Assembly: GCA_027622665.1 (NCBI GenBank)
Contig: JAQBYT010000004.1
Coordinates: 1-64,000 of the forward strand
Length of the DNA stretch: 64,000 nt
Source: Verrucomicrobiota bacterium
GTDB lineage: Bacteria > Verrucomicrobiota > Verrucomicrobiia > Opitutales > Seribacteraceae
Reading direction: 5' to 3'
This document shows, piece by piece, positions 56,192-62,672 of the stretch (within the stretch, counting starts at the first letter, position 1; every line of letters begins with the position of its first letter). The notes under the pieces were generated by a model. It saw only the letters and a program-made list of their open reading frames with translations. It was not told the origin of the DNA and did no database searches. Position numbers and translations under genes: made by a program.

Positions 56192-56962
56192 ATGAAGACT
56201 ATTATTAAAACTTTTTTCTACGTTGTTTCTGCCTGTGCATTGTCTATGCCTTTTTCACTGTCGGCCAAAAAGACCTTCGAGGGCAAAATGGAAGCTGTCT
56301 CCAATCAGCTCAAGGCGGCGGTGAAGTCAGGCAAGTTGTCCGAGGAGGATGCTTGGGCCAAGTGGAAGGCGATTCAAGGAGATTATCAAGAATCCAAGAA
56401 GGGATGGGACATGGAAGCCATCGCTAAGAAACTTAAGGCTGCTGTGGCGGCAGGCAAGATTTCCGAGAGTGAAGCTCGTCAAAAATGGGAAGCGATAAAA
56501 GACGAATCCTACCATCTCAAAGATTCAGGCCATGATGACGGAGAAATTAATGAGGAGGAGGAACTTTGGGAAGAAGTCGGGCGTGGTTTGAAGGCGGCCA
56601 TCGAGTTGGGCAAGATCGAGGAGGAGGAAGCAAAAGAGATTTGGGAGGACCTGAAGACTGACGATTTCGAAGATGAGCATGAAGGCGATGAGGGTTTTCA
56701 TAGAGACGAAGAGATAAGGGAACTGCACTTCGATCTCGAAAGAAATAACCTTGAATTTGAACTCGAAAGAATGGAGAACGAGCAGGATCGTGAACGCAAG
56801 CAATGGGAACAGGACCTGCAGCGAATGGAACATGATTTCGAACGAGAGCGTATGGAATGGGAGTTGGAAAGAATGGCATGGGAGCGTGAACGTGATCACC
56901 TGCATCGCCAGTGGGATAACGAAAGACGCCATCACGATCATCCTCATCAGGATCGGAACTGA
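56192..56962 (+). CDS. Secreted protein with three LKAAV-x-GK-(L/I)-SE helical repeats and an E/R/W-rich coiled-coil tail
   Basis: Signal peptide; repeats LKAAVKSGKLSEEDA, LKAAVAAGKISESEA, LKAAIELGKIEEEEA. Confidence 0.75.
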   Translation: MKTIIKTFFYVVSACALSMPFSLSAKKTFEGKMEAVSNQLKAAVKSGKLSEEDAWAKWKAIQGDYQESKKGWDMEAIAKKLKAAVAAGKISESEARQKWEAIKDESYHLKDSGHDDGEINEEEELWEEVGRGLKAAIELGKIEEEEAKEIWEDLKTDDFEDEHEGDEGFHRDEEIRELHFDLERNNLEFELERMENEQDRERKQWEQDLQRMEHDFERERMEWELERMAWERERDHLHRQWDNERRHHDHPHQDRN

Positions 56963-57117: not shown

Positions 57118-57190
57118 GTAACCCATCTCCAGTTCGGACTGTATACTGTAAGATGACTTTTATTGTTCATGGAGCTTTCCGAGGAATTTT
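57118..57190 (+). promoter_or_regulatory. Copy of the putative ECF-type promoter and first codons (MELSEEF) of the downstream sigma gene
   Basis: gtaacc-N16-tgtata...atgacttttattg..atggagctttccga(g/a)gaattt is shared with 62602-62672. Confidence 0.7.
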
Positions 57191-57226: not shown

Positions 57227-60200
57227 ATGAACGTCCATTCCTATTCAGTTGCCCGCCAGTCCATCGGCTACTTGGAACACGCAGGGGCAAACTTGGCCAA
57301 AAGTCTGGGGAGGCTATCGTCGGGAACCAAGATCAATACCAGTGAGGACGATGCGGGCGGCCTTGCCGTTTCCGCCAAGATCAACTCGGCGATTACCAGA
57401 TCCTTGGCTCTTAAAGAAAACGTCCAGAACGGGCTCTCGTTTCTGGAAACACAAGACGCAGCCCAGAATCAACTAGGCGAAATCATAACCCGGATGGCGG
57501 AACTTCGCCAACGCTTCGACGACACAACCCGGAATTCCCAAGACGGCACCGTCTACAATCGGGAGTTCAAGGAACTGAAGGAAGAGGTCGAATCCTTAGC
57601 CAAAAAGAAATTCAACGGCATAAGCCTGTTTTCCAATGAGAGCGACGACAAGAGCAAGCTGATCGTAAACACCTCGGAAGATGGAAAAAACAGTTCCAGC
57701 GCAATCACCCGAAACCTATTCTTCAAGTCGATTCTGGAAACCAAGTCCCCCGGAGGACCTGTCGGGGCCACCAGAACCACGCAAGGCGCATTCGGTTCCT
57801 ACAGCGGCACCATAACGCCAACGGGCGACACCACCCCGGACCAAACCGTGAACGGCGCGGACGGAAGCACCCCGGCGCAACTGTTGAAGGGACTTCAAGG
57901 CACCACGACTACCCAAACGGTAAACGGGACAATCGGAGGAACCACGCCCAACCAAACCGTAAACGCCTTGCAAGGCTCAACTCCCGTCAAAAACGACCTG
58001 AAGGCGACTCAGGGAACGGTAAGCGGGCTTACGATCTCGGCGAAGCTAAACGGAACTCCCCCCGCCCCCTTGACCTTGAACGCAACGATCGGCAATGCGC
58101 CACAAGCATTATGGCAAGGGAGTTTCAATAACGTAAGCTCGGGATTTCATCGCCTTTCCCCAGTTTTCGACACTAACGGAGACATCATCGTGGGAACAAT
58201 GCAAGATGATGAGCTTTACAGGTTGGACCCGAACGACGGCCGAATACTGACCACCTACGACATGGGCAGCGGCGGAAACTTGTCATGGGAAAGCGCCGTG
58301 ACCGACGATACCGTTTACGCCGCCAACGGAGACGGCGACACTCTTTTTGCCTTCGACAAGGTTACTGGGGCGCAAAAATGGACCAAGACTCTATCCGGAA
58401 GGATTCAAGATCCACCCTTTGTCGCCTCCAACGGAAATATCTACATTGCTTGCGACTCGAGCGGTTTTACTCCGGGCGAAATCCATGCCTATCAACCGGA
58501 CGGGACGTCCTTGCCAGGCTGGCCCAAGCAGGAACACGGAACTTTTCGAGGAGGTTTTGCAGAGGCTGCGGACGGTACCTTGTACCTAACAAGCGGGCGC
58601 AACTTCGGCATACCTGCTCCTAAAACCCTTATGGCAATTGATCCGACAAGCGGCGCAATCAAATGGTCTAAAACTAATACCGAGATTAATAGAGTGTTGC
58701 GCGCCGCAGCGGTTGCCCCCGATCAATCGGTTGTTATAAATAGTCGAGACGGTGGTATTACCAGAGCTTTCAATCCCGATGGAACGGACAAGTGGACTTA
58801 CTCGAGTGGAGGCGATATTTTTGGGGGTCCAACCATCGATGCTGCGACGGGGAACGTTTTCGTCGCTTACGATAACGGTGTCGTGGCTCTTCAGTCAAAT
58901 GGAACAAACACTCCAAACGTATTGTGGAACTACTCCGCCGGATTCAACGCTCAGACGGTAACGCCCGCCTTCGATCCGGCAAGGAACTTGGTTTACGTTG
59001 CAAACACCGCCACGGGAGAAATCATTGCCCTTGACGCAACGGGAGGAGGGTCACCTGCGGGATCGGTAGCATGGACATACAATACGGGTTCCGCCGTCGT
59101 CGCGTCCCCCGCCCTAGACGCCAATGGAAACGTATACATCGGAAACACAAACGGAGATTTCTTCGCCATTTCCGTTTATGACTACATCAACAACCCGGCA
59201 GTCACTGACGGCATTGGGTCCAGCTACGATCCCGCCGAGCCTGCCCCGGCAGTCATCATTGACGGTGCGGACAAGGGAAGCTTGGCTGCAACGGCAACCG
59301 TAAACCCGGACGGCACGCTGAAACTAAATTTTACGGGAAAGGCATCGGGTGTGGGCAACTTGACGGCTACGATAAAAAACATAGCGGGCACTCCACCGCC
59401 GGCAGACCCGGCGGGAAGCAATTACCTGACGGCCGAAACGGCTCCTTCGGCCAGGGTATTGGCGGACGGGATCGCATCCAAACCGGCTACCCTGCAGGCA
59501 AACCTGATCTCCTTGATCGACGGCAATACCGCGGCACCCGCCGGCGGGGGAACCATAACGGATTCCTCGGGCAACGCGAACAATGGCACCGTGGCCGCAG
59601 GACAAGAACCCGGACAGGAAGTCAAGGAGCGAAGAACGGGAGCCGGAGCCTACGTATTCGACGGCAACAACGACAAGATTCTACTCGGAGACTTGAACGC
59701 CGCAATTGGAGGGCAAGACAAATTGACGATATCGGCTTAGATTTACCGGGAAGATACGGCGGACGACAGGATCGTCTGCAAGTCTTCCGGAACCAACGCG
59801 GGAGACCATGTGTTCAGCCTTGGAGTGGTGGACGCGGGATCAAGCCAAAGCAAGGTAAGGATGCACATAAGCACCGACACCATGGTTGCAGTGAGCATGG
59901 ACGGCTCGCTCACTTTTCCTCTAAATGAGTGGACTCACCTCGCCATGACTTACGACGGGACCAACCTGCGCTCATACGTCAACGGAGAACAAGACTCGAA
60001 CGTCTTTTCCGTGAACGGGAACATCAAGACCTCCACGGATCCCGTAACAATAGGAAACGTAAACAACGCCCAGAACAGGCACTTCGAAGGTATGCTCGAC
60101 GATGTGGGCATCTGGAACCGCGCCCTTTCCGCATCCGAGCTCGAGGATTTGGCAGGTCCGGGAAACCTCACCGCGACCACTGCAATCAATGCCGACGGCA

Positions 60201-62026
60201 GCTTGAAGGTCACTCCCGCCGGTACCCCCGCCACCGATGGCTCCTTCACGGTGGACGTTGATCCGGGGGTTCTCAACCTGCAGGGAATCTCCGAAACAGG
60301 CTCGGGATACGATGGGGCCACTCCCGAGTCAGCCCCCAACGTAACCATCACTGGAGCGGACAAGGGAACCGCTGCAGGAACCGCCACCGTGCGTGCGGAC
60401 GGCAAGCTGGACATAGCGTTCACAGGCACCCCGACGGGCACGGGCAACCTGACCCTGACCGTGGACCCCGGCGTCATCCGAAATCCCGCCGACCTCGTCG
60501 GCATCGCCAACCCGACCAACCTCTACGACCCCGCTGAGCCCGCACCGACCGTCACCATCACAGGAGCGGACAAGGGAACCCTTGCGGGAACCGCAACCAT
60601 TCGGCCTGACGGAAACGTAAATGTGGCGCTGGCAGGGATCCCCGCGGGGACGGGCAACTTGACTGTAGCAGTAGCCGACGGGCGAGACAAGGCGCCCGCG
60701 AACCTAGCGGGCATAGGATCAGGCTACGATCCGGGAGAGGCAGTTCCTGCAGTCACCATAACCGGAGCGGACGCGGGAACTCTTGCGGGAATTTCAACCA
60801 TCAACGCGAACGGCACCATCGACGTCGCCTTCTCCGGAAATCCCTCCGACATAGGGAACCTCACCGTGGCTGTGGCAGACGGCGTAGTTCGCAAGCCCGC
60901 CGACCTAACGTCCATAGGATCAGGATACGACCCCGCCGAGCCGGCGCCGGCAGTGACCTTTGCAGGAGCAAGCGCGGGAACGCTCTCGGGAACCTCCTCT
61001 ATCAATGGTGACGGCACCCTGAACGTGACCCTTGCCGGCGCTCCCACAGACACGAACGACGTCACGATGAACGTTGCAAACGGTCTACCGGGAGTAGCCG
61101 ACCTGACGGGCATTGGTTCAGGCTACACGACAGGTGATCCTGCTCCGGGCGTAACGGTTTCGGGAGCTAATGCGGGAACCTTGGCGGGAACTGCCTCGAT
61201 CAATGCCAACGGCACATTGGACGTGAACTTTACGGGAAATCCAAGCGACACCAACAACGTCACGGTACAAATCGCCGACGGGCTCGCACGAGTTGCAAAC
61301 CTCTCGGGCGTGGGGTCAGGATACGATCCGGGTGAGGCAGCCCCGGGCATCAGCATCACCGGAGCCAACAAGAACACCCTGAACGGCGCCGCGACAATCA
61401 ATGCAAACGGTACTTTAGATGTAAGCTTCGGCGGCAACCCGGCGGACTTCAACAGTCTGGGAATTCAAGCTGCAGACGGAGTCACTCAAGCCCCGAACGC
61501 ACTGACGGGACTGGGCGGGAATCACGATCCGGGTTCACCTCCTGCCGTTACCATTACGGGAGCGGACAAGGGTACGCTTGCCAGTGTAGCTAGCGTGAAT
61601 GCAGACGGCACTGTCAACGTCTCATTCACGGGGAGTCCATCAGGCCCAGGCCCATTGACTGTGCAAATCCCAGGTGGAGTTGCCTCGAATCCCATATCAA
61701 ACCAATACCTACTGGAAATAGATGGAGACTTGTGGGATTATACAGTGGCTGAGTTTGTTGCATTCACCTCGATAATCGCGGATGCCAGAGCCCAAAACGG
61801 CGCCGAGCAAAACTCCCTCAACACCAATTGGAATAGCCTTTCCACAAGAATCAACCAACTGGAACAAGCCAATGGGAGGATAACCGACACAGACTTTGCA
61901 GAAGAAATGACCAAACTGGGAAAATCTCAAATCCTCAGCCAGTCTGCATCCTCTATGCTTGCAAAATACAATCGAACCCAAACCGAGGCCCTCCTGAAGT
62001 TGCAAAACTTAGCAGGCAACCTCTAG
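57227..62026 (+). CDS. fliC: Giant multidomain flagellin (flagellin N, short repeats, PQQ/BamB-like propeller, LamG, about 66-aa repeats, flagellin C), interrupted by one in-frame TAG at 59738-59740
   Basis: N-terminus RLSSGTKIN..DDAGGLAVS..NVQNGLSFLETQD..RMAEL..FNGISLF; C-terminus RAQNGAEQN..LEQANGRITDTDFAEEMTKLGKSQIL. ORFs 57227-59740 and 59810-62026 are in the same frame and the intervening codons are open. Confidence 0.88.
59200..61690 (+). repeat. Nine approximately 66-aa coding repeats in the flagellin (one split by the LamG domain)
   Basis: Consensus L.GIGSGYDP.EPAPAVTITGADKGTLAGTATINA.GTL.V.F.G.P...GNLTV.VADG. Units recur about every 198-201 nt (e.g. 60713, 60914, 61112, 61310, 61511). 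Confidence 0.85.
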
Positions 62027-62492: not shown

Positions 62493-62672
62493 GTAACCCA
62501 TCTACAGTTCCCGCTGTATATATTCACATGACATTGATCCATTATGGACCTTCTTTGTTGTGCGAGGGGCGTAGGGTGGTTTCTACGCCCCTAAATTTAT
62601 TGTAACCCATCTATAACTTTCGCTGTATATTTAATATGACTTTTATTGCTTATGGAGCTTTCCGAAGAATTT
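62493..62672 (+). promoter_or_regulatory. Two tandem copies of the gtaacc-N16-tgtata motif separated by a GC-rich hairpin (62565-62592)
   Basis: gtaacccatctacagttcccgctgtata at 62493 and gtaacccatctataactttcgctgtata at 62602; hairpin aggggcgtag...ctacgcccct. Confidence 0.65.

Follow-up and report, generated by a model that had tools for sequence, protein, structure and literature searches.

Matched short and long repeat arrays in giant flagellins of marine Verrucomicrobiota suggest a double-pass rod of split beta-sandwich domains

We analysed a 64,000-nucleotide (nt) stretch of a Verrucomicrobiota genome (assembly GCA_027622665.1, contig JAQBYT010000004.1, positions 1 to 64,000; the window), which carries a giant flagellin-like gene at 57227-62026 on the forward strand. 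The gene starts with an ATG at 57227, comprises 1599 codons and is interrupted in frame by a TAG at 59738-59740; it encodes nine short (S) units, a PQQ-type propeller and nine long (L) repeats, with a LamG domain within the second of these. It is very likely that the outer region of this giant flagellin is a double-pass rod of split beta-sandwich domains, each made of an S strand of 11-14 amino acids (aa) and an L repeat of 66 aa that pair last-in-first-out, and that the copy in the window, being cut by its stop, is likely inactive. The two arrays, their equal counts among relatives, their joint gains and losses and the stop were observed; strand complementation and the reverse order of pairing are predicted. 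Since the frame is broken by the TAG at 59738-59740, the two-array reading presumes the read-through protein, which is laid out as follows.

57227..57751, forward: flagellin N-terminal D0/D1 region (Pfam PF00669 at aa 14-138, 61.5 bits, cut-off 26.6)
57752..58093, forward: nine short units S1-S9, 11-14 aa, Gly-initiated; predicted donor beta-strands of the outgoing leg
58106..59176, forward: PQQ/BamB-type beta-propeller, predicted turning point of the chain (PF13360, 77.3 bits)
59189..59389, forward: long repeat L1, predicted partner of S9
59390..59482, forward: long repeat L2, first half
59489..60151, forward: LamG (concanavalin A-like) domain inserted in L2 (PF13385, Laminin_G_3, 84.3 bits)
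59738..59740, forward: in-frame TAG at a conserved Trp of LamG; TGG in other alleles
60155..60268, forward: long repeat L2, second half
60269..61678, forward: long repeats L3-L9, ending at 60472, 60682, 60883, 61084, 61282, 61480 and 61678; predicted partners of S7 to S1
61679..62026, forward: flagellin C-terminal D1/D0 region and stop (Pfam PF00700, 51.4 bits, cut-off 23)

Co-variation of the short and long repeats

Both flagellin terminal domains of the window gene (PF00669 and PF00700) score above the Pfam cut-offs. A preliminary description of the stretch had placed about nine Gly-initiated units of 11-14 aa before the propeller, and nine were found at exactly 57752-58093 with the sequences it quoted. 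Their mean pairwise BLOSUM62 score is 4.5, compared with -5.0 +/- 1.1 in 300 residue shuffles, none of which reached 4.5. For the nine L repeats the score is 124 against 5.7 +/- 1.9 in shuffles. A repeat-derived profile located the nine L repeats, which span aa 656-1485 and of which the second is split by LamG; together with Pfam it recovered the nine beta-rich long repeats after the propeller, and the LamG insertion within the second, that had been described earlier. Unsupervised segmentation divided the S region of the window into eight units, with S6 and S7 fused as one 25-aa segment, and the region's length of 124 aa corresponds to 9.0 units on the family regression. Tandem Repeats Finder detected no array at the DNA level.

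Homologues of 804 to 2283 aa were gathered (here, labels such as L006 and L011, with three digits, and P0002 denote homologues, L1-L9 are long repeats and G000 is the genome of the window). The numbers of S and L units were equal in 28 of 32 full-length flagellins, ranging from 3:3 to 15:15, against a shuffled mean of 6.4 and a maximum of 15 in 20,000 shuffles, and in 15 of 18 after similar sequences had been collapsed (shuffled mean 2.2). For the count of 28, double-length merged S segments were split by a fixed rule beforehand, and P0033, which is 9:9 by eye, was left out of the 32 and the 18 on account of an insert within its S array. This insert of about 50 aa lies at aa 240-300 of P0033 and leaves the 9:9 count undisturbed. 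A search for short full-length homologues returned 31 matches, mostly fragments, with one 804-aa flagellin at 3:3.

The length of the S region between fixed landmarks, which involves no segmentation, was correlated with the L count (Spearman 0.87, n=33, slope 11.5 aa per repeat). With a tree built from the flagellin termini, phylogenetic independent contrasts gave an r of 0.82 over 28 tips, with P0014, P0076, P0033 and two duplicates left out. The co-variation of short and long repeat numbers that had been proposed for homologues is therefore present, and independent variation of the two counts, which would speak against matched arrays, was not what we found.

Gains and losses are also joint. 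The homologues L029 and L030 differ by 78 aa, which is exactly one S unit plus one L repeat, and in several close pairs the extra units lie at mirror positions in unit-level alignments: P0005/P0006 (S5-8, L8-11), P0013/P0016 (S7-8, L4-5), P0012/P0019 (S5-6, L6-7) and P0055/P0053 (last S, first L). In P0004/L030 the extra units fall within an expected run of near-identical repeats. Unit-level alignments are noisy for more distant pairs. The preliminary description had also held that length changes need coupled duplication at two distant sites; S and L units are indeed gained or lost together in close pairs, but the counts differ in four of the 32 flagellins.

Order of pairing and predicted structure

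A divergent clade, represented by L006, L010 and L011, has S units of two alternating types (read by eye in these three proteins) and likewise two types of L repeat. In L006, the L array reads ABABABA followed by two generic repeats, and seven alternating S units come last in the S array; in L010, the L array reads BAB followed by two generic repeats, and three alternating S units come last. The phase of the S and L types in L006, L010 and L011 is consistent only with the reverse order. In addition, the last S unit leads directly into L1 in several proteins. S and L units are predicted to pair last-in-first-out, from S9 with L1 through to S1 with L9.

AlphaFold2 modelling of a natural stretch of four S units and four L repeats (4S+4L) from the non-flagellar homologue L006 gave a mean predicted local distance difference test score (pLDDT) of 89.4 and a predicted template modelling score (pTM) of 0.68. 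A misaligned row of L010 was left out of the final module alignment, having been removed between versions A5 and A6. In the model, the S units are strands (pLDDT 84-95), and the structure is formed by beta-strands throughout, with no alpha-helix/polyproline pairing. Among 50 fold matches to it, 24 cover S4 with L1 (residues 38-45 to 121), 14 cover S3 with L2 (25-29 to 193), one covers S2 with L3 (16 to 264) and six cover S1 with L4 (1-6 to 333-339); a further two cover L3 alone, three are multi-domain or poor, and none pairs S1 with L1. The spans of the fold matches in this model are those of the nested order.

The highest-scoring fold matches were 4ru4 (Z 5.9, root-mean-square deviation 3.1, 78 aligned) and 3osv (Z 5.2, root-mean-square deviation 2.6, 69 aligned). 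No Foldseek match to the L006 model was obtained at E 0.001 in PDB or BFVD, and ESM Atlas gave no usable match. A sequence search of PDB had its best match in 7nsn_A, at profile positions 461-633, where the alignment has insert columns from whole proteins. The S+L domain is predicted to be a small beta-sandwich with no closely related solved structure, Z scores below 6 being at the level of a common arrangement.

For the window's own protein, S1-4 and L6-9 were modelled as two separate chains, and the resulting complex score of 0.53 (best control 0.02) is weak support; among solved complexes, 116 of 157 reached the mark set for this score, as did two of 215 mismatched pairs, and 18 of those solved complexes as well as both mismatches score 0.60 or under. 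At least 94% of the contacts agreed between runs, with a partner pLDDT of at least 76. The L6-9 chain had a pLDDT of 88-89 with the S units and 57-60 with unrelated partners, and S1-4 had 76-79 with the L repeats and 30 without them. The order of pairing in the window's protein is one we infer from the family.

The claim that short units pair with long repeats in reverse thus finds its nested order in the 4S+4L model of L006, whereas the docking of the window protein itself is weak. A disordered short-repeat region was not what the L006 model gave, since its S units are confident strands, all-beta and inside single-domain fold matches. The earlier picture was also of a rigid rod with the propeller at its tip. 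A rod of split domains is predicted, but the pTM of 0.68 does not support rigidity; the propeller lies between the arrays in the window gene, but in homologues it can also lie inside L1 or inside L5, or be absent.

Portability of the module and alternative explanations

Of 76 family genomes, 13 had matches to the repeat profile; among 400 additional genomes taken from elsewhere in the phylum, there were none. Run against 1.84 billion proteins, a profile returned 81 matches, and the strong ones that were inspected all came from the same marine Opitutales-like family; close relatives are labelled Puniceicoccaceae or Opitutia, and the window DNA occurs in seawater runs. The module was also found in large proteins that lack flagellin termini and carry cadherin, LamG, lectin, F5/8 and FG-GAP domains. 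The principal proteins with unusual arrangements are listed below.

L006:10203-20000, forward; L010:2526-7541, reverse; P0083, P0087, P0109 and P0024: large non-flagellar S/L proteins (open frame of up to 4803 aa; C-type lectin among the domains)
L015:4663-8409, forward (P0099): FlgK of genome G024, with two L repeats and adjoining S-like units
L011:6448-12747, reverse; L012:3255-9485, forward: flagellins with the order S4-L10-S2-propeller-L2-S10-L4

Non-flagellar proteins keep equal numbers (L010 5:5, L006 9:9, P0083 2:2, P0087 2:2), with the last S unit directly joined to L1. The L011 and L012 flagellins, of about 2100 aa and 16:16 in total, have an order that can be parsed as a nested, branched rod, one block of which is inverted so that L would run outward and S back. 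The FlgK of the window's genome was found to lack the S/L module. On balance we favour the view that this split repeat unit, its halves matched like brackets, is a portable module for nested, branched and polarity-switchable rods of any length, used by a single marine family of Verrucomicrobiota in its flagellins, its FlgK and its secreted adhesin-like proteins, and that it would give filament spikes of tens of nm with propeller and lectin-like tips.

It is very unlikely that the L repeats are complete, independent immunoglobulin (Ig)-like domains and that the S array is a flexible tether, with equal counts arising from a length constraint and no strand exchange. Such a tether would be expected to co-vary with the L array anyway, as an extended unit of 12-13 aa would span approximately one small domain, and the four mismatched alleles, the within-protein similarity comparison that fails to discriminate order (below) and the two fold matches that cover L3 without a strand could all be accommodated by it. 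It also draws on weak Pfam matches of the window L repeats to Filamin (22.5 bits, below the cut-off of 26.9, over only positions 40-80 of 93) and to the Ig domain Big_6 (31.5 bits, cut-off 27.6, over only positions 20-71 of 83). However, the S units of the L006 model are ordered strands lying within single-domain matches, the confidence of the L chain falls from 88-89 to 57-60 without them, the S and L types match in phase, and the non-flagellar proteins, which need no return of the chain, nevertheless have as many S as L units. Complementation between chains or out of register, whereby an S unit would complete the L repeat of a neighbouring subunit and an outer lattice would be formed instead of one rod per chain, is scarcely credible given the exact intrachain match of counts, the insertions and deletions at mirror positions, the direct link of the last S to L1 at the tip and the presence of the module in proteins that are no filament subunits. 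In its favour, outer-domain dimers are described in other flagella (PMC11532411), and our docking test used two separate chains, with no contacts taken from it.

Less easily set aside, though still improbable, is the possibility that the rod forms in proteins that are free or surface adhesins secreted via the flagellar apparatus and not filament subunits. Such a role would fit with the several short, ordinary flagellins that the genome also encodes, with the location of the giant genes at a distance from the flagellar cluster and with the truncation of the window allele. Against this, both flagellin terminal regions are conserved and above the Pfam cut-offs, a sigma-28-like motif is present at 14 of 16 loci, and the FlgK of G024 bears the same module. 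This explanation does not contradict the structural claim.

Several observations weigh against a double-pass rod in filament-forming flagellins. Raw automatic segmentation of the S region gave equal counts in only 21 of 33 proteins before splitting; of the 12 misses, seven were two degenerate units fused, one was the 50-aa insert of P0033 and four were true mismatches. These four (P0008 12:11, P0014 9:11, P0015 11:9 and P0022 9:7) are all single-member clusters. P0014 has a 120-aa exact internal duplication, and L003, which shares the S array of P0014, is 9:9; P0015 equals P0012 except for a missing block. They may be mis-assemblies or one-sided intermediates. The idea that mismatches always have more S than L units was ruled out by P0014. 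In L013/P0055, the extra units lie at forward positions, in a protein pair with alternating near-identical repeats, and within-protein similarity matrices do not discriminate order, the reverse exceeding the forward in 13 of 27. On the structural side, the support is prediction throughout and the confident model is that of a non-flagellar homologue; its module alignment has 32 rows, just nine of them with both S and L, and the connectivity of the chain by itself favours the reverse order in this model. Single-sequence AlphaFold2 modelling of the 5S+5L module of L010 was uninformative (pLDDT 39.8). The incorporation of giant flagellins into the filament is putative, and RNA evidence consists of three short contigs from one run.

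Since a flagellin has its two termini in the filament core, any long projection must be double-pass, and the predicted rod offers an answer to how a flagellin with both ends buried can bear a very long one. With 12 residues out and 66 back per domain, the projection could be lengthened economically. The rod would hold the propeller and LamG, which are likely adhesive or glycan-binding, away from the filament, with cargo at the turn or in loops, and would measure approximately 30-40 nm for nine units if a strand spans 3.5-4 nm. Flagellar export proceeds N-terminus first. The chain would leave the export channel in this direction and zip back from the tip. Changes in length might occur by exchange of the inner segment between alleles or paralogues, where two offset crossovers would alter both arrays at once, or alternatively by duplication in one array and later selection restoring the balance. 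Segment exchange is suggested by genes of mosaic composition: between P0002 and P0003, identity is 87-98% inside and 67-73% at the ends, and between P0003 and P0008 it is 87-91% at the ends and 36-75% inside. Tandem-repeat proteins normally grow by duplication of whole units; here, arrays up to 3 kb apart must change together. Coupled repeat evolution and long-range last-in-first-out folding become testable with small constructs, a natural 2S+2L module being about 165 aa. The model predicts unusually spiked filaments in uncultured marine Opitutales, and the module could be a building block for single-chain branched protein rods.

Chaperone-usher and type V pili use donor-strand complementation, in which an incomplete beta-sandwich receives its donor strand from another subunit. 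In contrast, the donor predicted here belongs to the chain that it completes, at a distance of up to 1300 residues and in nested order, and is intrachain in the single-chain model of L006. Resemblance to the beta-sandwiches of FlgD (3osv), filamin Ig (5dcp) and phage tailspike (4ru4) is limited to being a small beta-sandwich, with Z below 6. The N- and C-terminal regions of flagellin are reported to fold together discontinuously in the filament core (PMC6248924), and flagellin outer domains are described as beta-rich, commonly Ig-like and including WD40-type propellers (PMC11532411). Compared with FliC flagellins as described there, the prediction here is of 3-16 repetitions of the discontinuous fold, formed by two separate arrays that change length jointly. 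The giant flagellins of Oceanospirillales have DE repeats in one or two tandem regions from direct duplication (Thomson et al. 2018, PMC6248924). Our proteins share with them a size above 1000 aa (1599 codons, and homologues of up to 2283 aa), internal duplication and occurrence in marine bacteria, but differ, going by the published description, in their split units and matched arrays. In streptococcal antigen I/II (SpaP, SspB, AspA), an N-terminal and a C-terminal repeat region pair as a stalk that projects a central domain, through an alpha-helix and a polyproline helix (PMC3178794). The pairing of N- and C-terminal repeats around a central domain is alike, here by co-variation and prediction; unlike the A-P stalk in that account, the domains are predicted to be small beta-sandwiches, with cargo in or between repeats and inversions of polarity. 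As far as these sources go, the DE-repeat giant flagellins, the Ig-rich and WD40 outer domains and the antigen I/II stalk are the nearest described cases, and a repeat unit split into two matched arrays within one chain does not figure in them. A full-text literature search, with subscription journals and supplements outside its scope, found no solved structure or publication with matched split beta-sandwich arrays.

State of the window copy and its genomic setting

At the TAG site, each of the 15 LamG-bearing rows in alignment A4, other or identical, has Trp. P0002 equals the window protein in every residue but has Trp at this site; TGG was found in L022, L023 and L031. Both flagellin termini lie in one open frame in P0002, L022 and L023 and not in the window allele. 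Contigs from three of three DNA runs span the site with no alternative letter; two of these (X1 and X2) are possibly the source of the window DNA, and the third (X3) differs from it at other sites. An assembly error was rejected as the contigs of all three runs agree, and the TAG is a real nonsense allele occurring in natural samples. No suppressor tRNA with anticodon CUA was found among the 38 tRNAs of the 93.5% complete genome. Flagellar export handles unfolded single chains. A split gene acting in trans from the in-frame GTG at 59810 was judged unlikely for this reason and because the C-terminal half is without an N-terminal region.

Scanning with the sigma-28 promoter consensus, we found 14 of 16 homologous loci to carry a sigma-28-like motif 117-181 nt ahead of the start (background 0.001 per 200 nt). 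Within 200 nt upstream of the window gene, or of its allele L022, no such motif was found. The region before the window gene instead holds a TAACCCAT-N13-TGTATA-like motif with three copies in the genome, all in the window: one before the flagellin and two before an extracytoplasmic function (ECF) sigma gene at 62646.

57119..57189, forward: upstream motif in common with the downstream ECF sigma gene, with a degenerate copy of that gene's first codons (41-nt repeat)
62494..62520 and 62603..62670: further locations of the motif

It looks as if the flagellin had been captured into, or had duplicated, an ECF promoter region. The ECF sigma gene is the neighbour of L022 as well. Given the genuine TAG and the missing sigma-28-like motif, the copy in this genome is probably inactive, so that the family has to serve as the basis for judging the architecture. 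In a relative 96% identical to the window gene (L001:1-2163, forward), an exact duplication of 136 aa adds two L repeats; the S array of L001 lies beyond the contig. Upstream in the window, at 56192-56962, a 256-aa open reading frame with no Pfam match above cut-off combines a signal-like start with short helical repeats and a coiled-coil tail that is very acidic and rich in His.

In genome G000 there are a cluster of flagellar genes and some ten flagellin-like genes, the latter with very different inserts. The flagellar genes comprise FlhA, FliF, FliG, FliI, FlgD, FlhB, MotA, MotB, FlgH, FlgI, FlgK, FliD and a gene in the FlgL position; FlgK, FlgL and FliD are each approximately 1000 aa. The flagellin-like genes include a second giant one, whose N-terminal half with 13 S units ends contig C26 (133807-135381), and a C-terminal half with L repeats that starts contig C14 (53168-54493). 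At the start of contig C43 (3-1367), a low-complexity tandem-repeat region has a weak L-repeat match in the wrong frame. Flagellin-like genes were also found on contigs C8, C30, C55, C58 and C66, and by eye the inserts include an HExxH-like motif (C30) and a lectin-like insert (C55).

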